Notes: generated by a model not told the origin, from the letters alone. 64,000 bases of DNA from an uncultured bacterium (GCA_963726455.1 CAVSCK010000004.1:1536001-1600000), one strand, 5' to 3'. Counted from the stretch's first letter, positions 17,766-38,294 are shown. Program-made: numbers and translations.

Positions 17766-17778
17766 AGGAGTAGGGCGA

Positions 17779-18192
17779 ATGCGTGTCGATATTGCGTGGG
17801 TGAACGCCAAACAATTCGAGGCCACCAACGAGGAGGGGGCACAATTTCGCATGGACAGCAAACGCAAAGCGGGCGGCTCGGGCGATTATGCCAGCCCGAC
17901 CGATCACCTGCTGGCTGCGGCCGGCGGCTGCACGGGAATTGATGTCGTCTCTATCTTGCAGAAGATGCGGCAGGAATTCCGCTCACTCAAGATCGAGGTC
18001 GAGGGCACGCAGGCCGAAGAACATCCGAAGTATTTCACGCATATTCATCTGAGATACATCCTTGAAGGCGACAAGCTCGACCGCAGCAAGGTCGAGCAAG
18101 CTGTTGAATTCTCTCAGGACAAGTATTGTTCCGTGCGGGCGACACTGTCCGACAAATGCAAGGTGACCACCGAAATTGTGATCCTGCCCTGA
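17779..18192 (+). CDS. OsmC family protein
   Basis: GAGGAG RBS; SPTDHLLAAAGGCTGIDV...SQDKYCSV. Confidence 0.88.
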   Translation: MRVDIAWVNAKQFEATNEEGAQFRMDSKRKAGGSGDYASPTDHLLAAAGGCTGIDVVSILQKMRQEFRSLKIEVEGTQAEEHPKYFTHIHLRYILEGDKLDRSKVEQAVEFSQDKYCSVRATLSDKCKVTTEIVILP

Positions 18193-20561: not shown

Positions 20562-20991
20562 ATGCTAAAGAAACCGGAGATTCAACAGAACAGGATTACC
20601 ATTCCTTCCGATCCGGCGTTGATTCGGGAGGTTGACGAGTTTGTCGAGTCGAAGCTCAGAGAGCGTCAATCTCACCGACTCCCTCATCGCCGACATTGCC
20701 ATCTGCGCAACCGAGATCGTCAACAACGGCATTAATCACGGCAACAAACAGGATCTGAACAAGACCGTTACCCTCGAACTCAGAGCTGATCCCGAGCAAG
20801 TCGTAATTACCGTCACCGATCAAGGGGAGTCTTTTGACCAGGCCCGAGTCGAGGATCCTGTCGATCCGCGCAATCTGTTGCGGGAAGTCGGCAGAGGCAT
20901 ATTTATCGTGAGGCACTTGATGGACAGCGTGGAGATTCATCGTGCTGACGGCGGGGGAACTGTTGTGACCCTCACCAAGAAAATCGCTTGA
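20562..20991 (+). CDS. Anti-sigma regulatory kinase (RsbW-like), frameshifted near 20650
   Basis: ITIPSDP N-terminus; EIVNNGINHGN, DQGESFD, GRGIFIVRHLMD. Confidence 0.85.
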
Positions 20992-21011
20992 TCCCGGTCT
21001 CGGGAGGTAGA

Positions 21012-23238
21012 GTGAATCTTGAACTGGTAATTGCCGTAGTCTATCTCGCCTGCGCAACCCTTCTCTTCATCATCGCCTTTCTGATTTATCAGGAAGATCA
21101 GCGCAAGCGGATCAACCGCATCACGGCATTGATGTTCGGTTTTGCCGGCTTCGGCCCCTTTTCTATGGCCTGGGGCAACTTGGTGGCGCACACTGTCCTG
21201 ACACGTAGCGCACTGTACAATTCCGTCTACGTCTGGGAATTATTCTTCCCGCAACTCGTGTTCTTTGCGCTCTGCTTCCCAACCGAGACTCGCTTCTATC
21301 ACCGTTTCCCAAGGCTGAAGTACATCATTTTCGTTCCCCATGTCTTTCATCTGCTGCTGACCACGGTGCTGGCTAATCCCGACAAGCTCGTGAAAATGAT
21401 TGATCCCCGGGAAATGGGAACGCTGGGCAAGGCGATTTTTGGTCCTCTCGAACAGGTGGCGATGGTGGTGGGCACGCTGTTTTCGATGCTTTCTGGACAG
21501 TCACACCAAGCTATTTTCGATTGTCAATTTCGTCTATGTGATCGTTGCCGCGATCATCCTGTATCAGGGCACCAAGCGCGTTATTGCGCCCCAATTGCGC
21601 AAACAGGTTGTCGTCGTGATCTACGGCATCATCTCCGCACTCGCCCTGTATGTCGTCGGCCTTCATTCTTCCCAATCTGGGCGTGATGGTACTTTCACGC
21701 GGCCTGACGACGACGCTCACTATCCTGGCGTTGATTCTCGGCTGCGGTTCAATCGTCTGGGCGATCGTGCGCTATCGCTTCATGGATGTCCGCCTGATCG
21801 TGCGGCAGTCGCTGGTCTATTCGGCGACTTCAGCGCTGGTGGTCGGCGCGTACGTGCTGATCATACGCCAGATCGAGCGCATCATCTCCACGCTGTTCGG
21901 AGTCAACGTTCCCGGCGTTGAGATAGTCTTCATTATCGTGGCGCTGATTCTATTCCAGCCAGTGATGAACCAGACTCGACGAACTAATCCGTAAACTGTT
22001 CATTCGCGACAAAGCTGACTTTCGCAACATCTCGCAGAACTTTTCCCGACAAGATCGCCTCGATGTTCGAATTGCGGGAGATATTCGCGCTGGCCTACGA
22101 GGTGCTTCACGACCAAGTACTCATTGAGCAAAGCTACATTTTCATCAAGCAGGACAATCCCTCGCGATTGTGCACGATTGTCGCTGCCCAGGACTTCGAG
22201 CGCGGAGCCGTCTTCACCGTCGAGGATGCTCTGGTTGAGGAAGTGTCGCGCAGCGGCGGCGTGATCAATCTGGACGAGCTGATTGCCAAGTTTCCGACAT
22301 CGAACCTGATCCTGCATCTGGCGGAATTGAAGATCCGCTTTTTGACGCCGCTTGTGTCCGGCGATGAGCTTCTTGGCTGCATGGCGGTCTCCGACAAAGT
22401 CTCCGGTTATCGGTTGAATTACGAGGACGTCACAACGCTGGCGACCATTGCCAACCAGTTGGCGGTGGCAATCACCACTTCGCGGCTATACCAGGAATCG
22501 ATCGAGAAACAACGCCTTGAAGAAGAAATGAACATTGCCCGCACGATTCAGAAGGAGCTCTTGCCACGAGAGTTTCCGCGCGGTGTGGATTTCGAGTTTT
22601 CCGCCTACTCCGAACCGTCACGGCAGGTTGGGGGCGACTATTTTGACTTTATCACGACCCCTCGCAAAACCTTCGGCGTCATCGTTGGAGACGCCTCCGG
22701 CAAAGGAATGCCGGCGGCATTGTTGATCAGCCAGATTCAGGCGGCGATTCGATCGGAAATTCGTCATGAAGTGCATCTGGGCAAGGTGCTTTCCAATGTC
22801 AACGACTTGATCCAGCAATCTTCCGATTCCGAGAAATTCGCGACGCTCTTTTTCGCCGAATTCGATCCGAACACGAAGATCCTGCGATACTCCAATGCCG
22901 GGCACAACTATCCGATCGTTGTCTCGGAGGGATCAACTCACCAGCGTCTTGATTGCGGCGGCACGGTGCTGGGGGCATTCCCGGACATCAACTACGATCA
23001 GGGCGAGGTGCAGTTGCGAAAGAATGATGTTCTGTTATTTTACACCGACGGATTGAGTGAAGCCACCAACGAACATGACGAGCAGTACGGCGAGGATCGC
23101 ATCATGACACTTATAACCACGCACCGCCATCTGACGCCGCGCGAAATTGAGCGCAAGATTATCGAAGACGTGCGCGCTTTCGCCGGAAGTGATAGCTTGT
23201 CTGACGATATGACACTGGTAATTCTGAAAGTAATGTAA
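21012..23238 (+). CDS. Membrane-bound PP2C/SpoIIE phosphatase with GAF domain (RsbU-like), several frameshifts
   Basis: Multi-TM N-terminal fragments, GAF-like region, VGGDYFD, GDASGKG, NAGH, YTDGLSE, DDMT. Confidence 0.85.
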
Positions 23239-23773: not shown

Positions 23774-25232
23774 GTGACACTCAAGCAAAAACTATTCTTC
23801 TCGTTTCTGGTGCTGGCATTCTTGCCGACGGCAGCGCTGTTGATTTTCTCTTACCGTCTGGCGACCGAAGGGGCCGATTTGCTGGCGGCGCGGGGTGTGT
23901 CGCAGACTCTTGATGCCGCCGACAGTCTCGCGGTCAATCTGGTTGACTACGAACAGCAGCGGCTACTCGATGAATGCCGCTTCATCGTCAACGCCGACGA
24001 TTCGTTGCGCAAGCGTCTCGTAGCCGTAGATTCGGCCCTTTGTTTCCTGCGGACAACCGACGCATCGGGAACTGTCGAGTATGGCAGACTACCCGAAGAA
24101 GTTCATGGTATTTTCAGCAGGATTGAGCAGATGAACTTCGATTCGTCCGGTCGTACGCCCGTCGATGACCGCCTCCTGTTGTGGGCAACACTCAAGCAGG
24201 ACGGCAAACGCATTATCGGCGGCAGATACCTTTCCGACACAACTTTCGCTCTCGCCAATCGTGTCATGGACGGTCGCGCCAACTATGTCAGTTTGTCGAA
24301 AAATCTACTGCCGGGCGGGAAGAATCTGCTGCTCAAGATTACCATTGCGCTGATAATTGTCTCGCTGATTGTGTCCCTGCTCGCGGCACAGTCGTTGTCG
24401 TTTGGTTTTTCTGCGCCTCTGGAGCGGCTTGTCGATGCCACGCGCCAAATCAGCCGTGGTGATCTCAAGCACCGCATCCCCGTGACCGGAACGGATGAGA
24501 TCGGCGCCCTGACCAGCCACTTCAATACGATGACCGAGTCGCTGGAAGCCGTGACGCGGAATCTTATCGCCGCCGAAAAGGAGATGATCTGGCGCGAAAA
24601 TGCCCGCACTGTAGCACATGAAATCAAGAACCTGCTGACGCCGGTCAATGTGGCGCTGTACCAGATTCGCCACAAGTTTCTGTCCGAGTCTGGCGCCGAT
24701 CCCTCAGCTCGGCAAGGCGGTTGACGCCTTATCAGGAGAGATCGAGGCCATTTCCGACCTCGCGAAGCAGTTTGCCATCTTTGCCCATCCCGCGAAACTG
24801 GCGCGTACTGATATCGAACTGGCTGCCTTGATCAATCAGGTGATTGCGTTACACGCCGGTTCTGCGGGTGAGCGCTCGATCACCGCGATGATCGAGCCGC
24901 CGACACTGACGGTGTTCGCCGATCACGATCTGCTCAAACGGGTTGTCTCGAATCTGCTCAAGAACAGCATCGAGGCAACTTCAGATAAAGGAATCATCAG
25001 CATCAGGGCGGACGAACAGCCGGACAAGAATGTTCTGGAGGTGTCCGACAACGGAATCGGCGCCGACGACAAGTTGGATCTCACGCAACCATACTTCACT
25101 ACCAAGAAGGCAGGTACCGGGCTGGGTTTGGCGATTGTGAAAAAAGTTTGCGAAGCCCACGGTTGGACGTTTAGTTATGGCAATTTGGAAAAGGGATTTT
25201 TCGCCCTTATCGAAATGCCACGGAGTTTATGA
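23774..25232 (+). CDS. HAMP sensor histidine kinase (NtrY-like), frameshifted near 24680
   Basis: HAMP DEIGAL..FNTM, H-box VAHEIKN, NLLKNS, DNGIG, GTGLGL. Confidence 0.85.
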
Positions 25233-26572
25233 AAAATCGAATCTTCATCGTTGATGACGACGCCGCAATCCGCCGTGCACTTGACTCACTTCTGTGTGAC
25301 AAGGGCTATCAAATCAAAGCGTTCGGCTCCGTTGCCGCTTTCCGTCAAGCAGTGGCAGCCAATTGTGTTGCGGTCTTGCTGTTGGACATTGCCCTTCCCG
25401 ATGATGACGGCCTGACCGCACTTCCAAAAATCAAGGACGAATTCCCCGAACTGGAAATCATCATGATCACCGGCGAGGCAACTATCCAGCGCGCCATTCA
25501 GGCAACCAAGTCCGGCGCCTACGATTTTCTGGAGAAACCGGTTGACCCGGAGCGGTTGCTGTTGACGCTGAGAAATCTCTTCGATGCTATCAACCTGCGC
25601 ACCGAGTTGGCGTCCGAACGTGACGACGAACGCTATCGCATCATCGGTGAATCGAAAGCCGTACGCGACATGATCGCCAAGATAACGGCCGTGGCTGCGA
25701 CAGATTCGACCGTCCTTATACTTGGAGAGAACGGAACCGGCAAGGAGTTGGTCGCCGATCAACTCTGGATGCACTCCAAACGTCGACAGCAGCGGCTGGT
25801 CAAACTCAATTGCGCCGCCCTGCCGCATGAGCTGGCTGAGTCGGAGCTTTTCGGCTACCGCAAGGGCGCTTTCACCGGCGCTGAGCGAAATCGCGACGGC
25901 AAGTTCAAGACAGCCGACGGCGGTACGATCTTCCTTGACGAAATCGCGGAACTGTCCCCGGCAATTCAGGCCAAGCTCTTGCGTGTGCTGGAGAGCGGCG
26001 AAATCGAACCCCTCGGTTCCGACACGATTGAAACCGTCGATGTACGGGTCATCACCGCCACCAATCGCAATCTGGAACAACTGGTGTCGACCGGCAAGTT
26101 CCGCACCGATCTTTACTACCGGCTCAACATTGTGCCAATCGAGGTTCCCCCCTTGCGCGACCGTCGCGAGGACATCCCGATTCTTTTACAGCACTTTCTG
26201 CAACGACTCTCCCGCACTACCGGTCTTGGCGTCAAGAATTTCGTGCCCGATGCCACAGGTTACCTTGCGGGGCTTGAATGGCGCGGCAACATCCGAGAAC
26301 TTCGCAATGTCGTCGAGCGCTGCTATATCATGAGCCGGTCGCCCATAATCGACCTGGATGAACTACAGCGCTTGATCGGCGGCTCCGGCTCTAACGACTT
26401 CGATCAAGAGGAAACCACGAACCAACTGATCGCCGCAGTCGGCCAATTCGAGCGGTCATTTCTCAAGTCCGAGTTGGATAAGTATCAGGGGAATATCAGC
26501 GAGCTGGCACGCGCCCTCGGAATCGACCGCGGCAATCTTTCCAAGAAACTGAAGGCCTACGGTCTCGTGTAA
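25229..26572 (+). CDS. Sigma54-dependent response regulator (NtrX/NtrC family)
   Basis: Receiver domain, GENGTGKE, GAFTGA, WRGNIREL, Fis-type HTH. Confidence 0.95.
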   Translation: MKNRIFIVDDDAAIRRALDSLLCDKGYQIKAFGSVAAFRQAVAANCVAVLLLDIALPDDDGLTALPKIKDEFPELEIIMITGEATIQRAIQATKSGAYDFLEKPVDPERLLLTLRNLFDAINLRTELASERDDERYRIIGESKAVRDMIAKITAVAATDSTVLILGENGTGKELVADQLWMHSKRRQQRLVKLNCAALPHELAESELFGYRKGAFTGAERNRDGKFKTADGGTIFLDEIAELSPAIQAKLLRVLESGEIEPLGSDTIETVDVRVITATNRNLEQLVSTGKFRTDLYYRLNIVPIEVPPLRDRREDIPILLQHFLQRLSRTTGLGVKNFVPDATGYLAGLEWRGNIRELRNVVERCYIMSRSPIIDLDELQRLIGGSGSNDFDQEETTNQLIAAVGQFERSFLKSELDKYQGNISELARALGIDRGNLSKKLKAYGLV

Positions 26573-26754: not shown

Positions 26755-28464
26755 ATGAAATATCTAATGGGATTGTTGACCATAATCGCCCTGACCACAC
26801 CGGCATTGGCTCAGGATTCCTCTGAAATCAGTCTGGAAGTCATCTTCACGCGCACGAACGGCACTATTCAAGCCGTCGGTGCGAGAGATACGGCCAAGGT
26901 CGAGTTCGCCTTCGCCGAAATCCGCAAATCGGCAAACCAGATCCTGATCCGCGACCGAGTCCTGATCTCCGGCGATTCGCTCTTTGTCGGCAACAGGGTT
27001 TTCGCCCTCGACACGTTGACACCCTATGACGTCAACACTTGCTGCGGCGGTTTCAAATTGACCCTGGCTAAACAGGAAGAACGCGCTCATTCCCGGCGCG
27101 CAGTCGACAGGTTTCGCTATGCCTCGTTCCAGAAAGTAAATGTGCCGCCCGGTGATTTCGTGCGCGGCAACGTGTTCTGTGTCGGTGGCGAGGCGGTGAT
27201 TGAAGGCGAGGTCAACGGTTACGTGGTAGCGCTGTTTGGTGATGTCCGCCTGACCAGCGCCGCAATCTGCCAGCGCGACGTCTTTGCTATCGGGGGCGAA
27301 ATTCACAAACATCGGCAGGCCAGAGTTTACGGCACTTACCAGTCTACCGAGTCCTGGCAACAGGCCAAAGTCCACTACCGCAAGAAAGGCACAGCTGACA
27401 AATCTGCCGTGCACGTCGGACTTGATGCCTCGTACACCCGCGTGGACGGCCTATCCCTGATTCCGAGCGTGACCTTTCAGTCGGAGGAGAAACTGCTTCC
27501 CAAGTTTTTTTTCAAATACGGGTACGGCTTTACGTCCAAAGTCTCCAAGTACCAGCTTGGCTTTGAGCAGACGCTGTTTGACGTCAATCAGACCAAGTTC
27601 GGCGGCTCCGTCTATCGCGTGACGGACACAGAGGACGACTGGATTTGCGATGAGAGTGAGAACAATCTGTATGCGTTGCTGATTCGCGAGGATTTCCGCG
27701 ATTACTATCAGGCAGAAGGCGGCAAGATCTTCGCCGAACAGTCGATCGACTACAATCACACATTTCGGCTGGAGTATTCTTACGAAGCGCTGGGTAATAT
27801 GATGGCACATCCGAGATTGTGGTCCCTATTTGGCGGTGACAAACGCTTCCGCGACAATTTTTCGTCAGTTGACCAGGAGCGTCGTAACGACGGCCTGGAG
27901 TATTACAGCACTAAGAACGAAGCTGTTCTTACCGCTTCGTACGTGCTCAACACCGTCGAAGATCAGCGGGGTTCATTGGCGCGCGCCGGATGGGTTGCCG
28001 GAGTGGAGTACGAACATTCATCCATTCAGCTTGGTTCTGATTTTGACTACGATCGCTACACGCTGGAACTGAGGCGTTATCAACCGCTGACCTATATTCA
28101 GAATCTCAATGTGAGATTATTGTACGGCGGCGCATCCGGCACCCTGCCGTTGCACCGTCTGTTCTATCTTGGCGGGATTCGCACTCTGAGAGCTTACGGC
28201 ATCAAACAGTTCTACGGTTCTCATGTGGCGCTGGCTGACGCCGAATATGTCGTCAACTTCCCCAAGAGCGATGTGGGCGTAGCGTTACTGTTCGATATGG
28301 GCAAGACCGGTTGGAATAACAACTTTCTTTCCAAGGGTGGTTGGCATGGTGACGTCGGAATTGGATTCCGCGCCAGCGAATACTTGCGTCTGGAAGTGAC
28401 CCGACAGATAAACGGAGACACCGACAAACTTCAGTTGAGTGCACTGATAGGCAGAAGTTTCTGA
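26755..28464 (+). CDS. Outer-membrane BamA/TamA-like barrel protein with a beta-helix repeat region
   Basis: Signal peptide; GNVFCVGG/GYVVALFGD/DVFAIGG repeats; FYLGGIRTLRAY; terminal Phe. Confidence 0.7.
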   Translation: MKYLMGLLTIIALTTPALAQDSSEISLEVIFTRTNGTIQAVGARDTAKVEFAFAEIRKSANQILIRDRVLISGDSLFVGNRVFALDTLTPYDVNTCCGGFKLTLAKQEERAHSRRAVDRFRYASFQKVNVPPGDFVRGNVFCVGGEAVIEGEVNGYVVALFGDVRLTSAAICQRDVFAIGGEIHKHRQARVYGTYQSTESWQQAKVHYRKKGTADKSAVHVGLDASYTRVDGLSLIPSVTFQSEEKLLPKFFFKYGYGFTSKVSKYQLGFEQTLFDVNQTKFGGSVYRVTDTEDDWICDESENNLYALLIREDFRDYYQAEGGKIFAEQSIDYNHTFRLEYSYEALGNMMAHPRLWSLFGGDKRFRDNFSSVDQERRNDGLEYYSTKNEAVLTASYVLNTVEDQRGSLARAGWVAGVEYEHSSIQLGSDFDYDRYTLELRRYQPLTYIQNLNVRLLYGGASGTLPLHRLFYLGGIRTLRAYGIKQFYGSHVALADAEYVVNFPKSDVGVALLFDMGKTGWNNNFLSKGGWHGDVGIGFRASEYLRLEVTRQINGDTDKLQLSALIGRSF

Positions 28465-28465
28465 T

Positions 28466-29152
28466 GTGATCAATCGCTACGGCTCGGTCCTCATTCTATT
28501 TTTCGTCTGGCTGTCGCCGGCCCTGGCGGCAGAACGGGAGGTTGCGTCGGTGCCTGCTTCGGTATCCGGCGACACCCTGTTCGTACTGTTTCCGTTCGCA
28601 AGTTTCCTGACCTCAGACGATTCCGCCTCAATAGTCGACGGCGAGCCGGTCAGCGTCATTTGCCGTTTGGAGTTGTGGCAAAAGCGCCGGCTCTGGTTTG
28701 ACCGCATGCGAACAGAGTTAATTGCTTATGCAGTAATAAGTTATGATAGGTGGAGCGAGAAATTCGTGGCCGATGCGCTCACCAGTGCAGACACGGACTC
28801 GTCTTTTGATTCGGCTTACCTCGATTCGCTAGCTGGCACGTTACAGTACTTTCTCACATTCCCGTTTCGGCTCCAGCCGGGCGACTATGCCAAAGAAAGT
28901 TACATGGCATATTCTCTTGAATTACAGTACGTTACACCTGACAAGGTCGGCGAATTGAAAGACTGGCTGTTCGGGGGCAAACATAAAAAGTCCCCCTCGA
29001 TTCAACCCCGCGGCCAGTCCCTGCCTGGAAAACTCTTCAATATAGTGCTCAATTCGACCGGATTCCGCAACCGATCGTACGTTCGCAGCTCATTGCCCTT
29101 CTTCCCCGGACAAATCACCGGCTCCATAAGCTTCCCGGCAGCGCTTAACTAA
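28466..29152 (+). CDS. DUF4390-like exported protein
   Basis: Signal peptide; ELWQKRRLWFD..ISYDRWSEKF; DUF4390 commonly neighbours ntrYX. Confidence 0.55.
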   Translation: MINRYGSVLILFFVWLSPALAAEREVASVPASVSGDTLFVLFPFASFLTSDDSASIVDGEPVSVICRLELWQKRRLWFDRMRTELIAYAVISYDRWSEKFVADALTSADTDSSFDSAYLDSLAGTLQYFLTFPFRLQPGDYAKESYMAYSLELQYVTPDKVGELKDWLFGGKHKKSPSIQPRGQSLPGKLFNIVLNSTGFRNRSYVRSSLPFFPGQITGSISFPAALN

Positions 29153-29225: not shown

Positions 29226-30965
29226 ATGCCCTTTCAAGCAAGAAACGTGAACAGTCTGGAAAAGACTGACAAATTTATCCTGCCGGTCAGCAATGAGCAG
29301 GGAAGCATACCGTCCGAGACCAGCGCGGAAGACTTACTCACGCGCATGGAACGTTCGGTGAACACGATCACCCAGGCGCGTCCTCATTTGTCAATGAGCA
29401 AGGCCGCCAATGGCGAGATCAGCAACTATAAGACCCTGCTGGAAATCTCGGCCATGGTCAACAGTTCGCTGGTGACGGATGACATTCTTCAAGTAGTGAT
29501 GAAGCGCGCCATCGAGATGATGAAGGCCGAACGCGGCTTTCTGATGCTTTTGGACGAACATAACCAGTTGCAATTCCGTACCGTATACAATCTCTGCAAA
29601 GAAGAATTGATGCAGGAGGACTTCAAGTTCTCCGGATCAATCGCCAACAAAGTCGCAGCGACCGGCGAATCGGTCTACACCTCCGACGCTCAGAACGACG
29701 AACGCTATTCCAAACAGAAATCGATCGCCGAACTGAACCTTCGCTCCGTCATGTGTGTTCCGCTCAAGATACAGGAAAAGGTCATCGGTGTCATATATCT
29801 GGACAATTCGAGCGAGGCCCGCCTCTTCCTCGAAAGCGATCTCTATTTATTCGAACTCTTTGCCACGCAGGCCGCGATTGCGATCAACAACTCCCGACTG
29901 TACGAGAAGATCGTCCGGCTGAAACGTTTCAACGAAAACGTAGTTTCCAATACGCCGGTCGGCCTGGTCGTACTTAGCGGTAAACTCAGAGTAGCCGTAA
30001 TGAATTCGGCGGCCGAAAAGATTTTCGCCCGCAAGTGCCCGGTTGGGACGGCCCTTGACGCTCTGTTGAACGACAGCACCTACGACCGCTGGCAGCAGAG
30101 TTGCCAGAACGTGATTTCCTCGGGTGTTGACGAGTCAATTTCGCGCTGCTACGTATCCGTCGGCGAAGAGGAAAAGGTCGTCGCCGTGAAATTTTCTCCG
30201 ATGGAAGAAGTCGACCATTATGGTCGCGGCGTGATCGTGGTAATCGAGGACATCACCGAAAAGACGATACTGGAAAATTATGTCACGATCTCCGAAAAAC
30301 TGATCGCCAAGGGCGAAATGGCGGCTTCAATCGGCCACGAGCTGAACAACTTCCTCGCGATCATCTCGAACAATGCCGAACTCATGCAGGTACGGCTCAA
30401 AAAGGGCGAATTCGACAAGCTCGAAAAATCGTCGACCGCAATTCTGGATAACATCGACAAGATCAAACGCTTCACCGATAATCTGATGGATCTCTCGAAA
30501 CTCGATCAGGAACTGGTGGTGTACAACCTCAACCGTCTGATTGACGATCTGCTGTTTACGATCAAGTCACAGCAGCGCTTCAAATCGGTCGGATTTGTGG
30601 TAAGAATGTGCCCCGAGCTGCCCGATTGCGAGATCGATGTCGGCCAAATGCAGCAAGTATTTCTCAACCTGCTGTATAACGCCGCTGACGCTCTCGAAAA
30701 CCGCGAAAGCAAGGCCGAAATTCTGATCACCACTCGCACCGAGGGCGATAGTCTCGTCGCCACCGTTCGTGATTCCGGCTGCGGCGTACCGCCGGAAAAC
30801 ATGGAACGGATATTCGAGTCGCATTTCTCGACCAAGACGCACGGCCACGGCCTGGGGCTGTCCAACTGCAAGAGAATTATCGAGAACCATCACGGCACCA
30901 TTACGGTTGACAGCAAGTTGGGTGAGTACACGGAATTCAAGATTGTTCTGCCGCACAAGCGGTAA
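29226..30965 (+). CDS. Cytoplasmic GAF-PAS histidine kinase
   Basis: GAF (AERGFLML, SVMCVPL, IGVIYLDN), PAS, H-box IGHELNN, NLLYNA, DSGCG, GHGLGL; no TM helix. Confidence 0.92.
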   Translation: MPFQARNVNSLEKTDKFILPVSNEQGSIPSETSAEDLLTRMERSVNTITQARPHLSMSKAANGEISNYKTLLEISAMVNSSLVTDDILQVVMKRAIEMMKAERGFLMLLDEHNQLQFRTVYNLCKEELMQEDFKFSGSIANKVAATGESVYTSDAQNDERYSKQKSIAELNLRSVMCVPLKIQEKVIGVIYLDNSSEARLFLESDLYLFELFATQAAIAINNSRLYEKIVRLKRFNENVVSNTPVGLVVLSGKLRVAVMNSAAEKIFARKCPVGTALDALLNDSTYDRWQQSCQNVISSGVDESISRCYVSVGEEEKVVAVKFSPMEEVDHYGRGVIVVIEDITEKTILENYVTISEKLIAKGEMAASIGHELNNFLAIISNNAELMQVRLKKGEFDKLEKSSTAILDNIDKIKRFTDNLMDLSKLDQELVVYNLNRLIDDLLFTIKSQQRFKSVGFVVRMCPELPDCEIDVGQMQQVFLNLLYNAADALENRESKAEILITTRTEGDSLVATVRDSGCGVPPENMERIFESHFSTKTHGHGLGLSNCKRIIENHHGTITVDSKLGEYTEFKIVLPHKR

Positions 30966-30974
30966 TATATCAGC

Positions 30975-33900
30975 ATGAATATCTTTCCCGAGTCTGCGGG
31001 GCTGCACGGGGCAGAGCTTATTGGGGAGGGCGGCACAGGTCTCGTTTATTCAGCATATGCTGCGCCACAGCAGCGCATTGCCGTCAAAGTTGCCATCAAC
31101 GACAGTCCCGCAACTCGGAAACTGTTCCACACCGAATACACGCTTCTCCGAAGTTTATCGCATCCCGGCATAATCAAACTGCACGATTTCGGTTATACCA
31201 CCGACAACCGCCCCTACTTCGTCATGGAGCTTCTGTCGGGAGGTGACCTGTACAGCTTCACCGACCGCCTGGCTCCCAAAGACCGCTTCCACCCGCTGGG
31301 ACGAATCCTGCCGGCGCTCGAATACCTGCATCGCCTAGATATCATTCACCGCGATCTCAAGGGCGAAAACGTCCTTTTCGATGCCGAGCACCGTCCGCGT
31401 CTGACCGATCTGGGCCTGGCGACCGGCTGCTGCGATAACGATACCGCGCGCGCCGGAACTGTCGAATACATGGCGCCGGAAATTATCGATAAGTGCGAAG
31501 CAACGCCGGCGGCGGACATCTACTCGCTCGGCGTGATGCTCTACCGCATGGCCACCGGACGCCTGCCGTTTACCTCGGATGATCCCTTGCAGATCATTTC
31601 ACTGAAACATGATCACAACGACGTCGACGTAAGCGAACTGAATTCAATTGTAACTCCCCGATTTGCACAGCTCGTTCGCCGCTGCCTCGATCCCGAGCCG
31701 GCACAACGGCCCAAGTCAGTTGGTGATATCGCCGAGCAACTGCAAGTTGACGGACTCATCGACGACAGCGATCTCGATCCATCCACGGCTCGAAGTTATC
31801 TGCACCACTACCTGTGGGCTTACAACGTAAGCTTTATCAAACAGGAAATACCGGCGGTCGAACACGATTTTCTGATCAACGACGCTTATCAGGGAGAAAC
31901 TACGCGTCTCCTCGACGCGATCTCCGATCATTTGCAGATTGCAGGATTCGCTGTATCGCGAACTAGTCAGGCACAAATCACTTATTCGCTCAGCGATGGC
32001 GCGAGCCACGTCGTGCGACTGGGCGGAACCAGCCCGACCTCGCACAATTTCCGTCAAGTCTCGTATGCGGAGCTGGATCGGTTTGCCTTCGATGCCATTC
32101 TCAGGAAGCTTTTTCCGTCCGGATACGATGCCGGTGTGACGGACATGCTGTATCGCCTCAGCGGCGGCAATATGGCCCTGATTAATCTGCTCCTGCTGCA
32201 GTTTGAAGATCAGGGATTGCTCAACGTCAAGGCCGGCAGAATCACGCTGCCACGCGACCAGGTCTTCCGCTTCCAGCCGTCGGAGGAATACTTCGACGCT
32301 GTGGCGTTGATGTTGCCCTCCGTCAATGAGGGTTCACTGGCAGCCGTGTCGCTCTTTGCCGCGGACGCCTTTGACAATCCTCATGATATTGTGGTCGAAA
32401 GCGCAAGTATCAGTGCGATCGATCTCGAGGACCTGATCGTTTCCGGGATTTTGACATCTGACACTTTTCAATTTGTCAAGACCTACTACCGCGAGTATTT
32501 CTACGGCCGCCTGTCGCAGGAAGAGAAAGTATCGCTGCATTGCGAATGGGTTGCCCTGCTGGACAATGGACTGGTAGTCACCGACGTCGATCTCGACGAG
32601 CAGTTGTTCTACCATCTGGCCGGCGCGGGCCGCGCGGAACCGGCTGCCGAAGTCGCGGTTCAGCTTGCCGAGCGTTTCCGCAGCGAACAGAAACCTGATC
32701 GTGCACGCGCATATCTGACGCAAGCGCAGTCGCTCCCGATGAACGAAATTGGGCTTGATCTTCGAGTGAAACTCCTGATGATTTCGGGAGACATCCGCAA
32801 GGACGCCGGCGATTATGACCGCGCTATCTCCGATTATGCCCGCTTGATTCGGCTGGCAACTCGCTCCGGCAACAATGCCATGCTGGCAGAGGCGTACAAG
32901 GATCTCGGCGACGTTTACAAGAGCAAACGTGATTACCGCCGCGGCAACCACGTGCTCGACCACGCCGTCGGGCTTTACGGCAAGCTGGGCGATGAGCTCG
33001 AACTTTCGCACTGCTTCAATAATATCGGCAATATCCAATGGCTGATCGGCGACTTGTCCGGCGCCGCGATCAACTATGAAACGGCACTGGAAGTTCAAAG
33101 GCATCTGGGGGCCCGACGGGACATTGCTTCAACCCTGAGCAATCTTGGCACCGTGAAACTCGTGCAGAAGCACATCGCGGAAGGTATTCGGCTCTGCGAG
33201 GAATCGCTGGCCATCAAACAGGAAATCGGTGACTGGCCGGAGTACGCGCGCACTGCCAACAACCTGGGCGCCATTTATTACGAAATTGAGGACCTGCAGA
33301 AAGCAACAGACTATCTTGAACGAATCGTTGCGCATCAACCTGACCCAGGGTGCGGAAAAGGAAATCCTTTACAATTACGAAAATCTTTACGAGGTCGAGT
33401 GGCGTCGCGGCAACTATCAGAAGGCCGCCGACTGGTTATTCTCCGGATTTCGGCTCGCAAAACAGAACGACTTCTCACACCGCGCGAATTTCGCCACGAT
33501 GCTCGCGTCACTCATGCTCATTACCGGCCGCTACCGCCGCGCCGCCGGACTATTGGACGTTGCCGGGCGTCTGGAGCACAACGTCGATGACCAGACATTA
33601 ACGCTCCGGTTGACGGAAGAGCGCGCCGAATACCATCGTCTTCTTGGCGATCACTCGCGGGCAAGCATATTCACTCTTGAAGCCATGGCGCACGCCGAGA
33701 AGCTCGACGAACCGAAGAGCAAGGCCAGATCATTCCTCACACAGGCGCGATTAGCGGCCGCTGCCCGAGAACAGGAATCGGCGGTTTGGGAATTCCTGCG
33801 GCAGGCGGAGGAAATTCTCGCCGGACTGCCGTTGCAGCGCGAGAAATTGACGATCCGGCTCGATCGCGTCCAGTTCCTGCTGGATTTGGGGTCGCTGTCA

Positions 33901-34293
33901 CTGGCGCAGGAAGTGTTCGAGCAGATCAGATTGATGCCGCAATTCGAGGGCATTAACACGTTTGAAGCGCGGATCAACTACATCAACGGTCAAATTGAAT
34001 CGCACAACAACCGCCACAAGCGCGCAGTCACGCTGTTCCATGACGCTTATATTGCCGCCAAGACTCTTCCCAACCCGGAACAAACCTGGCGATCACTGGC
34101 GGCGCTCGGTGAAACATATCAGACGCTCACCGAATACGAACGCGCCTTCAAGTGCTTTATCGAGGCGTTTGAAACATTGAAAGAACTAGCGGAGGGAATT
34201 GTAGATCCTGCCCTTAAGCAGCGCTATTTGTCGGATCCCGCCAAGCTTAGAATCGCTGAGAAGCTCGAGGAGATGTCAACGCTCGCGACCTAA
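30975..34293 (+). CDS. Hanks-type Ser/Thr kinase with degenerate NTPase region and TPR repeats, frameshifted near 33320
   Basis: GEGGTG, VAVK-like IAVK, HRDLKGEN, DLG, GTVEYMAPE; TPRs NNIG/SNLG/NNLG; continues in ORF 33229-34293. Confidence 0.88.
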
Positions 34294-34329
34294 AAAAAGA
34301 AGAGGACCGTCATGGGGACAGTCCTCTTC
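34292..34329 (-). terminator. Intrinsic terminator of the small peptide gene
   Basis: Minus strand gaagaggac-tgtc..gacg-gtcctcttc plus T7; the 34308/34320 pair is a G-U wobble only on the minus strand. Confidence 0.85.
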
Positions 34330-34357
34330 AATGACCGGTCTGAGGTTGCTGGAGTTA

Positions 34358-34435
34358 CTATTGTCCACCCTGGCTGAAACCACCTGGGGCGACTTTCTCC
34401 TCGAGCACCTCAATCATCAGATTGTATAACTCCAA
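34358..34435 (-). CDS. 25-aa putative precursor peptide MELYNLMIEVLEEKVAPGGFSQGGQ
   Basis: TTG start 5 nt after GGAGGAGGTG (34441-34450), tandem TAG TAA stops, own promoter and terminator, acidic IEVLEEKVAP leader-like motif, adjacent RRE-M50 peptidase. Confidence 0.8.
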   Translation of the reverse strand: MELYNLMIEVLEEKVAPGGFSQGGQ

Positions 34436-34436
34436 A

Positions 34437-34497
34437 ACTTCACCTCCTCCCATGAGTTCAGTGAACCGGTATTCACGGCGCCAAGGTGAAGTGGCGC
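34437..34497 (-). promoter_or_regulatory. Structured 5' UTR with a hairpin loop complementary to the RBS
   Basis: gcgcca-CTTCACCT-tggcgc loop is complementary to AGGTGAAG in the SD region; gtgaa/ttcac hairpin lies between. Confidence 0.5.
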
Positions 34498-34594
34498 ACG
34501 TGTTTTTCTTTTATCGCAGGGCTCCCGTTTTCGGGCCTCCCGATGATACTCGCTGTTTTTGGCAATTATGCCACGTCGATGCAATGTCCATATT

Positions 34595-34622
34595 AAGATA
34601 AAATGGAGTCCGAGTTTGTCAA
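34595..34622 (-). promoter_or_regulatory. Sigma70 promoter TTGACA-N16-TATCTT for the peptide gene
   Basis: Consensus -35 at 34617-34622, -10 at 34595-34600. Confidence 0.6.
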
Positions 34623-34726
34623 GATAAATTTGAGTTTGTAGGTCGATTTTCCTGTACAAACTGGACGTATACCCAACATTTGGTGTTTTGTCGTCTTTTG
34701 CCAGCCCATATATTGATTTCCAGCCC

Positions 34727-36982
34727 CTAAAACCAGGACCAAAATTCGAGTCGGAAGAACCTCGATATCTTCCTAAACAGCAATTCCGACCAGGGAGACT
34801 CGGCCGCAATCGACCTTGGCATACCCCGACATCTCGGGTAGCAGAAAGTGATTTTCGTTCGCGACAGCCGCTACCGCCTTCAATTGAGGTGACATTTTGA
34901 ACTTAAGAACCTTGCCCAAGTGTGGCGTCCCCGGAAAGGCGCTGACCCGCAATTCTACGGCGGCGCCGGGGTTCAGCAGATCAAGATCAGATTCGCGCAG
35001 ATCGACTTCGACCATCAGCGACTCAGTTCGGGCGAGCTGGAACAAGTCACGGGAATCAGCCGCTCCGACCATAACACCGTCAAAGGGGCTGATAATCGTC
35101 GACGCCGCCAGTTGACTCTTCAAATAGTCGACGCGCGCATGTCAGTTTCTCTATGTCGGCATCGATCCTCTCGACCGCGGCCGCCTTGGGAGCTGATTTT
35201 AGCAGTTTAAGTTCGCTTTTCTGGGCATCCCATGACGACGGGGCGATCTTGAACTGCGAAACCGAGCGCTCGTAATCGTCGTCGGAAATCAGCTTCTTCG
35301 AATGCAATTCCTTCACGCGATTGAATTCCTGCCGGGAAGACTCATACACCGCTTCCGCCTGCTGGATATCGGCGCGTTTCGTGGCAACTTCCTCGGCCTT
35401 GGGATCGGACAGCAACAAGCGCCGGTCCGCTTCAGCGCGTTTCAGATCCGACAGCGCCTCAGCCAGCGAACCCGAATTCAGAGTCGAGTTGATCGTTAGG
35501 AGCGTGTCGCCGGCGTGAACGGTATCGCCGATCGGAATATCGCGGTTGAATTTGTGTGATTGCGTAATCGGAAGCTGTAAGCTGGAATATTTGCGAGGTT
35601 TCGAAATCTTCAACGCCGCCGCGGAAATAGCGCCCCTCGATCAAGCTCGGTCCCACGCGCTTGACGACATACGATTCCGCTGCCAGTACACGTGCCGGTC
35701 CGCCGGTTGTCTGACCTACTCGAATCAGAACTGCCGGCCAGTACCACCAAAACAATAATGCCGACATAAATTGCGATGCGCTTCGGTTTCATCCAGACCT
35801 TTTTTCGCTCCCGCCATACGGACGATAAGCGCCTGCGACCATCTAACCAAAAGCCTTTTGAAAATAAGCAAACTCAGAGCGATGAACAACACAAATCCGA
35901 AACCGCTCCATTTCCCTATCAGAAACTCGCCGCCCCGGTAGAGCAGGAAGATTATCAGGAACAGCGAGTAGGCGATCGCCAACAGGCCATACCAACGGTA
36001 AATCCTGCCTTTCACGTGGTGTGGCAATGATGTCCGCAGGTGCGCACCCGAAGAGTTGGTCCTGATGCGCGCCCAGATGTAGCTGAAAGCTTTCTGGCGC
36101 AGGTTCGGGATGCGCAGATAGTCGGCAAGCAGGTAGTAACCGTCCAGCTTGATCGCCGGATTGAGATTAAACGCCGTGGTCGCAAAACAGACGGCAGCGA
36201 TCAAATAGAAGATGCGGTTCAGAAAATAGCCCTCGACGGTCACGCGCCAGAGGAGCGTAAACAGTCCCCAGAGAACCGCCTGCGCCAGAACTCCGGCTAG
36301 CCGTGACCAACAGCCGTTCGCGGCGATTCGGGAACAGGTAGGCGTCCGAGACATTGCAGTAGAAGCAGGGCTGAAAATAGAGCAGCAGGAACCCCATTTC
36401 GCGCACATTGCCGCCATATCGGCGACAAGTCAGCGCGTGGGCAAACTCATGTACGACCGTGATGACAAACAACGAGGCAATAATCGTCACAATATCCGCA
36501 GCCCGAAATATTGCCGTGATGCTGAAAGGAAATCGTTCGATATTCGCGAAGAAGACGATCCCGCCTACAACCACGATTAGTGCCTGCAGCCAGATCGCCG
36601 GCAGCGACATCAGCCAGCGTACTTTGGGATACAGTCGATTGAGAATTTGCTCCGGGTTGAAAGCCTTGAGTGGAATGAAAAGCGCTGATCGCCGCCGCGT
36701 TGTTCTGGCGATGGTGCCTTCGAAAAACCCCAGTTCGCCGATACGGCCAGCGAATTGGTCAACTGCTTCCGGAGTAATTGTCTTATTGAAGGTTTTGATG
36801 AACAGGTCAGCCGCATCTGCCGACGTGCGGGTGCCGTCCAGCGACGCCAGCAGGAAATACTCCGGCTCCCTCAGGCGGATGAATTTGCCTGAGACCGGTT
36901 CTTTGATGGTGTAATAGACAACCCCGTCGACAGCTTCCTGCTGCAGCCGGAGATCATCCTTAATCTTCGGATATGAGATCAT
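34727..36982 (-). CDS. RRE/PqqD-like domain + M50 intramembrane zinc protease + HlyD-type adaptor fusion, about 750 aa, several frameshifts
   Basis: YYTIKEPVSGKFIRL..YFLLASLDGTRT (PqqD-like), HEFAH, FNLNPAIKLDGY, GDTVHAGDTL lipoyl half, coiled coil, ISPFDG, LLPEMSGYAKV; reconstructed end RFFRLEFWSWF with stop at 34727. Confidence 0.85.
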
Positions 36983-37094
36983 GGCGCTTTCCCGTAAGAG
37001 ATAATGCCGGATTGTATGCGCCAGGTCAACGGGAATTGTGGCAATGTGGATTCGCTCTCGCAGGAATCAACCGCGAGGCACAGTCAACTGCCCG

Positions 37095-38294
37095 CTAAAA
37101 CGACAATCGTAGTCGGGCGAATTTCGTACCGCTTAAGGCCATGTTGTCCAGCAAAGGATATTTGGCATAGTCATATGACAGATCAAAACTGCGCACCGTG
37201 CGTCCGGTAAAACCATCGCCCAACTTCAGTAAATTCACATTTTCCAGCCAGAGGATTGCACCGTTGAGACTAAGTCCGAAGCCGTCGGTGTCGAAATTCA
37301 TGCGCCCGTTATCGAGGTTATATTTCCCGGTGCGCACGTAACCGATACCGAGCAAGCCAATTTCCAATCCCCACTTCTTCACACTGACGTCGCTGCCGTA
37401 TAGCTCCTTTTCGGTTTCTGAGGCGAACTGGACCGATATCGCTGTGGCTTCTCTCACTTTGAGCGAGGAATATATCGACAACCCGACTCTGCTGATTTTG
37501 GGCAGTCTATCACTCTGAGCTGCCTGCGGGTAGGTGAACGGGTCTCCAGTATTGAGTTTTGCGTAAGCCACGGAAGGCGTCAACTCAAATCCGAAAGTCC
37601 GCTCGGAATTGCCACCGTTCCACTTATCAGTCAGTATCTTGCCGATGGGAAGCTCAAGGATTGCGCCGATGTCGTGGGCCGTCGCCTTGCCGCCAAGACT
37701 ACTGCCGTGACCTCCAGAAAACGAAGTTAAGTGGGAGACAATCTTTTTGTACGTGTAGCCGATCCCGATTCTAAAGTAATACTCCACTCCCACGGCCGCA
37801 GAGTACATGTCCGCCTTATCGTATGCCTCGATAGACAGGTTTTCAGTCCCTTCATATGCGCCAACATAGATCTTGCCGTAGTCCAATTTGGTCCGCGAAT
37901 ACGCGACAGACGCTGCGTAATTCAGATCGGAATTGGCCCCGTGTGACAGCCAATGGCGCGACACTCCGCCACTGGCGTTGAATGTTGTTGTGTTGAAGTC
38001 ATCAGTAAGCTCTGGGAGCCACTTGGTCTTGGCCGGAGCGGTGATGGCAAAGATTTTCTGCAGGTGCAATAATCCAAGCGAACCGGGATTGTACAGGACC
38101 GATTCCTCATTGACCATGTTGACTACACACTGTCCCATGCCATTAGCCCTGGCGGAATGGGAGATGTTCAAAAACAAGACTCCGGCGCCGCCAACTTTCT
38201 CCTGCGCGCTGATCTGGCCGGTAGCGACCAGCACGGCAATTATCGCCAGCACGGCTACCGGCAAATTGAACCAGGACTTGCTTTTCGAATGCAT
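37095..38294 (-). CDS. PorV/PorQ-like outer-membrane barrel
   Basis: Signal peptide, FLNISHSARANGMG..YNPGSL, terminal Phe. Confidence 0.7.
   Translation of the reverse strand: MHSKSKSWFNLPVAVLAIIAVLVATGQISAQEKVGGAGVLFLNISHSARANGMGQCVVNMVNEESVLYNPGSLGLLHLQKIFAITAPAKTKWLPELTDDFNTTTFNASGGVSRHWLSHGANSDLNYAASVAYSRTKLDYGKIYVGAYEGTENLSIEAYDKADMYSAAVGVEYYFRIGIGYTYKKIVSHLTSFSGGHGSSLGGKATAHDIGAILELPIGKILTDKWNGGNSERTFGFELTPSVAYAKLNTGDPFTYPQAAQSDRLPKISRVGLSIYSSLKVREATAISVQFASETEKELYGSDVSVKKWGLEIGLLGIGYVRTGKYNLDNGRMNFDTDGFGLSLNGAILWLENVNLLKLGDGFTGRTVRSFDLSYDYAKYPLLDNMALSGTKFARLRLSF

Follow-up and report, generated by a model that had tools for sequence, protein, structure and literature searches.

A small peptide gene near-universal in an uncultured phylum, its candidate RRE-M50-HlyD processing protein and a convergent kinase operon

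A 64,000-nucleotide (nt) stretch of DNA from an uncultured bacterium (GCA_963726455.1, CAVSCK010000004.1:1536001-1600000; called the window below) carries a gene of 25 codons, which lies downstream of a gene fusing an RRE-like domain, an M50 intramembrane metalloprotease and a HlyD-type adaptor, and which converges on an operon ending with a Ser/Thr kinase that bears a TPR array. Judged by its codon pattern, the small open reading frame (ORF) is a real gene, selected as a peptide, and it occurs nearly throughout the phylum, mostly in single copy. The first-pass annotation, made from the window alone, had seen here a minimal locus for a ribosomally made peptide with post-translational modifications (RiPP) or a peptide signal. 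This reading was supported in part, because a processed peptide with a kinase partner remains the interpretation towards which we lean, while the near-universal spread and the conserved tail of the peptide fit neither patchy RiPP clusters nor diversifying pheromones. Taken as a whole, the locus is somewhat better read than not as a leader-guided peptide module, working by the steps proposed below.

The peptide gene occupies positions 34358-34435 of the minus strand as an intact frame, which runs from a TTG start (34435-34433) to a TAG stop (34358-34360). The predicted product consists of a 17-residue conserved leader with Ala-Pro at its end, followed by an 8-residue Gly-rich tail. A ribosome-binding site, GGAGGAGGTG (34441-34450, minus), stands 5 nt ahead of the start, and an intrinsic terminator (34299-34329, minus), made of a 13-pair hairpin with 7 G-C pairs followed by T7, lies between the stop codons of the peptide gene and the kinase gene. 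The position of this terminator hairpin is kept in relatives, in which its letters differ. These features, together with the recurrence of the ORF in relatives, bear out the 25-residue ORF with Shine-Dalgarno sequence and terminator that had been called initially. The promoter called with it stood only in part: a promoter-like TTGACA-16-TATCTT (34595-34622, minus) is present in the 291 nt that separate the fusion from the peptide gene, and its TTGACA is invariant across 7 aligned relatives, but its match to 10 of 12 positions is near what shuffling yields (1 found versus a mean of 0.7 in shuffles of the region), which makes it weak alone. When the leader profile was run against this genome, it found 1 ORF with an expectation (E) value of 7e-7, while the next best of 110,709 frames had an E of 1.7. 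Two further elements surround the small ORF. A hairpin at 34478-34497, about 30 nt ahead of the ribosome-binding site, recurs at this position in relatives with other letters, and palindromic ACCGGT motifs on both sides of the ORF (34464-34470 and 34334-34339) are invariant in 7 aligned family members; these could be a processing or stability element, or the binding site of a regulator. A consensus RNA structure calculated for the 85 nt ahead of the small ORF in 12 loci contained zero pairs, and an Rfam search gave only chance-level matches (E 0.28 and 0.71).

To follow the peptide across the phylum, a sample of 251 genomes and a set of the 80 best related loci were used. The labels of these loci are mostly Candidatus Zixiibacteriota, Zixibacteria or GN15, and many others read 'uncultured Ignavibacteria'; below, G000 is this genome, other G-numbers are sampled genomes, and L-numbers are related loci. 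The peptide profile matched in 201 of the 251 genomes, mostly in single copy and with per-genome E values reaching 7e-16. At E <= 1 it also matched 36 of 41 near relatives, including one match (E 0.9) that is noise. The flanks of homologous fusions, which had been suggested as the place to look for such ORFs, did contain them: 14 of 29 fetched loci had, 154-639 nt downstream of the fusion and in its orientation, a small ORF with the same motif, and in a second, independent set a profile match with E < 0.001 was obtained in 44 of 80 loci, always on the strand of the fusion. Every listed copy of the small ORF in relatives is preceded by a AGGAGGTGA-type ribosome-binding site.

The peptides were aligned in sets of 16 rows (A1) and 42 rows (A4). 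The consensus of the 42 copies in A4 is MxxYxLxIEVLExRIAPxGxSQGGQ, in which the frame L..E.LE....P is invariant, and Tyr, Ala and Ser are nearly so. The front of the peptide is more constant than its tail, which is usually a Gly-rich octamer and sometimes lengthened, while in a few lineages the octamer is swapped for other short tails. The precursors are 21-35 residues long, and their C-terminal residues are Gln, Gly, Asp, Ser, Val or Pro. At L134:8488-9581 (plus strand) four tandem small ORFs keep the leader and have a different short tail, and L097, L104 and L106 carry further tails. Pairwise differences at the first, second and third codon positions of the 14-codon leader block, counted over 40 distinct DNA sequences, numbered 2681, 1832 and 6590, respectively. 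Invariant residues are written with synonymous codons, of which there are 4 and 6 at the Leu positions and 4 at the Pro position. The excess of third-position changes and the synonymous codons at invariant residues show that selection acts on the peptide, which is almost certainly translated. An NCBIfam scan of the 42 peptides at E <= 10 returned a sole model, NF033737, which describes ammosamide/lymphostin leaders and was weakly matched by 3 of the 42 (best E 0.019), while two peptides scanned at E <= 0.1 had no curated family match. The ammosamide/lymphostin class is reported, in the accessible part of the source, to use TldD/E or M50 proteases (PMC10885120).

The presence of the peptide is closely paired with that of the fusion. 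Co-occurrence was scored at E <= 1e-100 for the fusion (8 weak matches were dropped), E <= 0.001 for the peptide and E <= 1e-80 for the kinase. At these thresholds both peptide and fusion were found in 198 genomes, neither in 38, which by their labels span at least six families, the fusion only in 12, and the peptide only in 3.

In the window the fusion gene spans 34727-36982 on the minus strand and is frame-broken, while in relatives it is a single open frame of 749-790 amino acids. It encodes the motifs HEFAH (36437-36451, minus) and NPAIKLDG (36139-36162, minus), and the corresponding HExxH and NxxPxxxxDG are invariant in 21 orthologues. Three intact orthologues matched NF041824, the daptide leader peptidase model, with 232.8, 214.9 and 228.3 bits over model positions 8-370 of 379, which does not reach the cut-off of 300; two pieces of the broken fusion in G000 scored 133.6 and 68.5 bits. 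The match of fusion orthologues to NF058609, the YydH/LiaK epipeptide protease model, was 47.7-50.3 bits, below its cut-off of 225. HlyD/RND-adaptor matches were obtained in the C-terminal pieces of the fusion, many adaptor models match its C-terminal third, and the Pfam PqqD match of its N-terminus is marginal (E 0.026). The AlphaFold2 model of the fusion had a mean predicted local distance difference test (pLDDT) score of 80.8. Residues 13-83 of the model form three strands and then three helices (pLDDT 82-87), which is the RRE/PqqD arrangement, and they are followed by M50 helices with a hairpin at 196-209, a last membrane helix at 399-418, and beta barrels with long helical hairpins. The best solved matches of the adaptor part were MacA and EmrA, with E values of 8e-16 to 3e-14 over about 330 columns. 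Because the fusion has seven hydrophobic segments, with basic residues preceding the first and the last, its N-terminal RRE is predicted to be cytoplasmic and its C-terminal adaptor periplasmic. The motifs, the NF041824 match, the fold and the MacA/EmrA match all agree with the PqqD/RRE-like, M50 and HlyD parts that had been recognized upstream of the ORF. Proteins of 690-920 residues that look alike form clusters in the ESM Atlas with Peptidase_M50, adaptor and sometimes PqqD families, most commonly from Pseudomonadota, Planctomycetota and Acidobacteriota; these are leads only.

A model of the RRE with the leader had been named as a further check, and the complex passed its controls. Residues 1-420 of the G035 fusion (21 aligned rows) were modeled with the 33-residue peptide of the same genome (42 rows). 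The interface score ipSAE was 0.70 (0.67, 0.71 and 0.70 in individual runs), whereas three controls scored 0.01 at best. Of 80 solved complexes 58 reach the mark set for this score, as do 2 of 110 mismatched pairs. Contacts agreed between runs to at least 86%, and the partner had a pLDDT of 59-62. In the model, peptide residues 5-10 pair with fusion residues 36-41, which form a conserved R-L-R-E-P-E strand, while peptide residues 1-19 contact RRE residues 36-44 and 68-87. The peptide also contacts the protease at 193, 194 and 197, which belong to HExxH, at 214-230, and at 283-298, where the second zinc motif is located. The model thus places the Ala-Pro junction (residues 15-16 of the G035 peptide) at the active site, and it does not fix the scissile bond. 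A cut after Pro is our best guess, since in the daptide leader position -1 is Pro and position -7 an essential Leu; in daptides the precursor is likewise short and encoded nearby, according to the portion of the preprint that was available (bioRxiv 10.1101/2023.03.08.531785). The co-variation of leader and RRE distance matrices, computed for 34 loci with the row of L142 mis-parsed, was too weak to be used (0.11-0.15, p 0.09 and 0.045). Overall, it is likely that the peptide is the substrate of the fusion.

The convergent operon is composed as had been described from the window, with the domains of a GAF-PAS histidine kinase and a Ser/Thr kinase with TPRs in adjacent genes of the plus strand. 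The Ser/Thr kinase gene (30975-34293) ends 65 nt from the stop of the peptide gene. Its product has the full catalytic set, which is invariant in 20 orthologues. The region of about 260-530 is without annotation, and everything from about 536 on is a TPR array, including a MalT-like TPR match; a hydrophobic (membrane) segment was sought in it and none was found. Directly upstream lies the gene of the cytoplasmic GAF-PAS-HisKA-HATPase histidine kinase (29226-30965), which neighbors the Ser/Thr kinase in 43 of the 80 loci. The operon starts with the gene of an Omp85-superfamily outer-membrane protein (26755-28464), which is followed by a DUF4390-like gene (28466-29152; E 0.00036, below the cut-off). 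Among 14 kinase-carrying loci, the Omp85-like gene was found ahead of the histidine kinase in 12, and the DUF4390-like gene was matched in 3. An outer-membrane protein hence shares an operon with two cytoplasmic kinases.

The link between the peptide and the kinase had initially been drawn from adjacency only. It now extends beyond the adjacency in one genome, although it is not absolute, because the kinase lies elsewhere in several genomes. In 65 loci with at least 1500 nt past the fusion, peptide and kinase were both present in 38, both missing in 23, the peptide alone was present in 3, and the kinase alone in 1, where a degenerate small ORF was seen at E 0.017. The gap between the stop codons of the two genes was 27-115 nt in the 38 loci, with one 11-nt overlap (L142). 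Of 30 peptide matches in near relatives, 29 had the convergent 3' end of the kinase gene beside them, and 19 adjoined the fusion. Co-occurrence and synteny of the kinase had been proposed as a test of the link, and all three genes were found in 178 of the 251 genomes and none of them in 34; fusion and peptide were found in 20, fusion and kinase in 9, the kinase only in 4, peptide and kinase in 3, and the fusion only in 3. Of the four kinase-only genomes, two reach a completeness of 84-86%, another is split over 620 contigs, and the last has a weak fusion match only. The kinase cut-off undercounts, so that the class of 20 genomes with fusion and peptide is inflated: in all three 'kinase-negative' genomes that were checked (G122, G097 and G133) a divergent kinase of 1165-1180 residues converges on the peptide gene behind a histidine kinase, while the fourth locus fetched (G049) stops at a contig edge. 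In the 98 genomes in which all three genes could be placed, they were together in 71, whereas the peptide was with the kinase only in 21, with the fusion only in 5, and with neither in 1. The limit for adjacency was 1000 nt, and one of the 21 genomes (G051) has the peptide at 1044 nt from the fusion; contig ends, which could be assembly breaks, account for at least five of the 21 and at least two of the 5. By these counts of synteny and co-occurrence, the peptide goes with both partners, with the kinase a little more closely than with the fusion, and the tie is breakable. A functional link between the peptide and the kinase module is on balance probable, while the narrower proposal that the TPR array of the kinase is the receptor of the peptide is only tentative and would rather be expected to fail.

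In the mechanism that we propose, the front half of the 21-35 residue precursor would be a recognition tag, which would lie as a strand on the three-stranded sheet of the cytoplasmic RRE-like domain. Once docked, the tag would hold the Ala-Pro junction at the zinc site of the M50 domain (HExxH / NxxPxxxxDG), where the protease would cut at the junction and leave a Gly-rich tail of about 8 unmodified residues. After this, the tail or the entire peptide would most likely exit through the fusion and a TolC-type duct encoded elsewhere, without an ATP-binding cassette (ABC) pump. The Ser/Thr kinase and the histidine kinase would form one functional unit with the peptide, either as a receptor after re-uptake or as a controller of peptide production. 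In this scheme cleavage, the exact cut site, export and sensing are steps that we infer, and we hold export at even odds.

Several observations weigh against this scheme. The pairing of peptide and fusion has gaps, as the 12 genomes that carry the fusion have no peptide match at E <= 0.001, and since the genomes of one phylum are kin, the counts overstate independence. The good score of the modeled complex may reflect its likeness to solved RRE-leader complexes, and the model was built on self-made alignments. In at least G081, G045, G167 and G038 the kinase and the peptide are separated; in G081 (C1:269260, C5:124028) and G045 (C1:1305251, 1313245) the peptide lies beside the fusion, with the kinase on another contig or 8 kb off. 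Small ORFs of the L134, L097 and L106 types lack the Ser/Thr kinase as a neighbor, and in L134-type loci the histidine kinase becomes their convergent neighbor. The co-variation of the tail with the TPR array, computed for the same 34 loci with the same mis-parsed row, was weak, with a partial r of 0.14 (p 0.09) when controlling for the M50 domain and 0.18 (p 0.016) when controlling for the kinase domain. An energy source for export is lacking, and the approximately six TolC-family genes of G000 are unlinked to the locus. Because the kinase has no membrane segment, sensing of an exported peptide would need re-uptake, for which no linked gene was found. The tail is conserved across families, unlike in diversifying pheromone systems.

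The frame changes in G000 also count against the scheme. Its fusion gene reads in five frame pieces, with five changes in 2.26 kb (near 36300, 35740, 35540, 35140 and 34782), none of which is at a long homopolymer, and its Ser/Thr kinase gene has one change near 33316, while none was seen in the remaining three genes of that operon. A look-up of sequencing runs for 33000-37100 listed none, nor a holder of RNA data. Elsewhere in this genome 5 frame changes were counted in 31 conserved genes (13,956 aligned residues), confined to 3 genes. This points to an assembly with local clusters of frame errors in the consensus, or to decay with scattered pseudogenes, and for the fusion we hold assembly error and real decay at roughly even odds, so that the protein in this genome may be dead or its gene mis-assembled. 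Three further genes of the window (23774-25232, 15939-18192 and 20988-21921) are split into two overlapping frames on one strand, and one of them is a HAMP histidine kinase by Pfam.

The genes around the module bear on how the peptide could leave the cell. When ORFs of the 80 loci were clustered, two neighbors alone were widely shared, the histidine kinase in 43 loci and the Ser/Thr kinase in 41, and the next clusters, which include a CLC channel, a TPR protein, a DAO oxidoreductase, an Ig-repeat giant protein, a thioredoxin-like protein and a vWA protein, occurred in at most 16 loci. Among clusters common to at least 8 of the 80 loci there was no ABC transporter, second adaptor, SecA-like ATPase, TolC or tailoring enzyme, and likewise no aminotransferase, methyltransferase, decarboxylase or radical-SAM gene. 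The earlier remark that neither a tailoring enzyme nor an ABC transporter is adjacent thus holds for the conserved neighbors of these loci. No importer was present among them either, a result which does not extend to permeases elsewhere in the genome, as these were not searched.

The same observations can be arranged differently. The kinases could be historical neighbors or general regulators rather than sensors, while the peptide is cut and exported for another role outside the cell. The convergent orientation, which precludes a shared transcript, is consistent with this, as are the conserved operon that the Omp85-like, DUF4390-like, histidine kinase and Ser/Thr kinase genes form on their own, the separate location of the kinase in several lineages, its loss in L134-type loci, where the peptide reaches four copies, and the weak co-variation of tail and TPRs. 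Yet only 4 of the 251 genomes, each with its caveat, have the kinase alone, all three genes are unfound in 34, and the peptide keeps its distance of 27-115 nt from the kinase stop across families, even where the fusion has moved; we therefore regard this arrangement as unlikely. It is still less likely, and in our judgment improbable, that the peptide acts as an intracellular messenger, with the periplasmic adaptor sensing or docking, for example, to an outer-membrane partner, and so gating the M50 domain, while the tail or the leader binds the TPR kinase inside the cell. Such a role would suit the cytoplasmic location of both kinases and, by topology, of the RRE, the lack of a pump, importer or TolC gene among the conserved neighbors, the Omp85-superfamily protein at the start of the kinase operon, and the conserved tail, which suits a single fixed receptor. 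We know of no precedent for it, however, and the C-terminal domain matches the TolC-docking MacA and EmrA over about 330 columns, including their long helical hairpins. In addition, relatives of the fusion have been linked in print with secretion, as far as the part of that article at hand goes (PMC4452313).

The remaining two explanations concern the nature of the small ORF itself. In a daptide-like or other modified antimicrobial RiPP cluster, with its tailoring genes elsewhere, the best family match of the protease would be expected to be the daptide leader peptidase, with YydH/LiaK weaker, as was observed, and the weak matches of 3 of 42 peptides to the ammosamide/lymphostin leader model point the same way. 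However, both protease scores are below the curated cut-offs (215-233 versus 300, and 48-50 versus 225), tailoring genes are absent from the clusters common to at least 8 of 80 loci, the peptide does not end with Thr, and a mostly single-copy gene with a conserved tail in about 80% of the phylum sample is unlike patchy antibiotic clusters, which together make this explanation very improbable. The features that define the daptide class, which are a DUF-RRE accessory protein, an oxidative decarboxylase, an aminotransferase, a methyltransferase and a Thr end, were not found in these clusters and in the peptides. An open frame arisen by chance, or a regulatory element of the spacer that does not code for protein, could be argued from the very short length of the small ORF and from the hairpin and the palindromic ACCGGT motifs that flank it. 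This is contradicted by the codon-position pattern and the synonymous codon use, by the conserved ribosome-binding site and start, by profile matches with E down to 7e-16, and by the modeled complex, and we give it almost no weight.

A leader-guided module of the kind that we favor would combine parts which are known from several systems. The nearest is the daptide class, which came to light through intramembrane site-2 proteases that carry an RRE domain as an N-terminal fusion, and in which MpaP removes the leader, as stated in the available portion of the preprint (bioRxiv 10.1101/2023.03.08.531785). MpaP/DapP likewise has an N-terminal RRE-type fold and an M50 core with HExxH and NxxPxxxxDG, and the alignment with the fusion covers nearly the whole model, whereas the fusion scores below the cut-off and adds a periplasmic adaptor of about 330 residues. 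The locus also differs from daptide clusters by the lack of MpaB/C/D/M-type tailoring genes and of a C-terminal Thr, by its double-membraned host and by its kinase partner. The YydH/EpeP/LiaK family (NF058609) too consists of M50 proteases for small peptides, and EpeP is thought both to cut and to export its peptide, according to the accessible part of a review (PMC10885120); the match here is weak, however, and that family has no adaptor domain, while the locus has no radical-SAM epimerase. MacA and EmrA, the best solved matches of the C-terminal 330 residues, including the TolC-docking helical hairpin, work with a separate ABC or major facilitator superfamily (MFS) pump, whereas the adaptor here is fused to a protease and a pump gene is unlinked. 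Compared to type 1 secretion and peptidase-containing ABC systems, the adaptor-like domain is shared, and an ABC gene is not among the conserved neighbors. An M50-like membrane domain joined to HlyD-type domains has been described before as Peptidase_M50/HlyD of the 'secondary SecA_DEAD' module, proposed to be the inner-membrane part of type-1-like secretion without an ABC transporter (PLoS One 2015, PMC4452313; seen in part). The SecA_DEAD, GAF-HlyD and further HlyD genes of that module are not among the conserved neighbors here, and in the text of that article that was available the word PqqD occurs 0 times and a leader-tagged cargo is not named.

The nearest functional analogy is the SHP/Rgg signaling of Bacillota, with the protease Eep and the exporter PptAB. 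SHP/Rgg and other RRNPP systems follow a similar logic, with a short unmodified peptide, maturation by an M50 protease (Eep) and a cytoplasmic TPR-type receptor whose gene neighbors that of the peptide, as described in the parts of the sources at hand (PMC7564271; PMC11323143); in the locus a TPR array lies beside the peptide gene as a receptor candidate. In the locus described here, however, the receptor candidate is a Ser/Thr kinase and not a DNA-binding regulator, nor does it have a helix-turn-helix or phosphatase effector; the protease carries its own leader-binding domain and adaptor, and an ABC exporter and an Opp importer are unlinked. RRNPP members are described as Gram-positive, and the sequence comparison here covered generic TPR matches. 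A full RRNPP-like circuit, in which a pump-less protease-adaptor frees a peptide of about 8 residues that is read by the TPRs of a cytoplasmic Ser/Thr kinase, as a phylum-wide core trait of a double-membraned host, is doubtful in our view.

That the host is double-membraned would fit the outer-membrane proteins encoded in the window, which are the Omp85-like protein and a PorV/PorQ-family-like barrel. The gene of the latter (37095-38294, minus; 37.9 bits, cut-off 90) lies upstream of the fusion, and it was considered and rejected as a part of the system because it is not found at that place in relatives. On the other side of the locus, a HAMP histidine kinase and an NtrC-type sigma-54 activator (23774-26572) lie between a NUDIX gene and the Omp85-like gene, and this pair looks like an insertion, because the NUDIX gene adjoins the Omp85-like gene in six relatives' loci.

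The RRE-fused site-2 protease was already known from daptides, and the M50/HlyD fusion since 2015 (PMC4452313). In the literature searched, no description was found of the peptide family, of its pairing with the fusion in Zixibacteria, or of the kinase partner; the supplements of PMC4452313 and of the daptide preprint, which may list relatives of the fusion, were outside this search. The peptide family and the kinase partner are new, and the module is distinguished by its minimal make-up, its unmodified tiny cargo, its phylum-wide spread and its partnership with a Ser/Thr kinase with TPRs. Because the system is so minimal, with one peptide gene, one processing protein, one candidate receptor kinase and a peptide without chemistry, each of its steps lends itself, despite the uncultured state of the phylum, to tests with a synthetic peptide and by expression in another host. 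The module gives the widespread but unassigned RRE-M50-adaptor proteins a simple natural candidate substrate with an 8-residue cargo, which could be used to probe whether a fusion of intramembrane protease and adaptor is able to transport cargo in the absence of an ABC pump. Dedicated signaling by peptides through cytoplasmic TPR receptors is textbook knowledge in Gram-positive bacteria and almost unknown in double-membraned ones, and if the link to the kinase is true, the peptide would represent a new class of ligands for bacterial Ser/Thr kinases.

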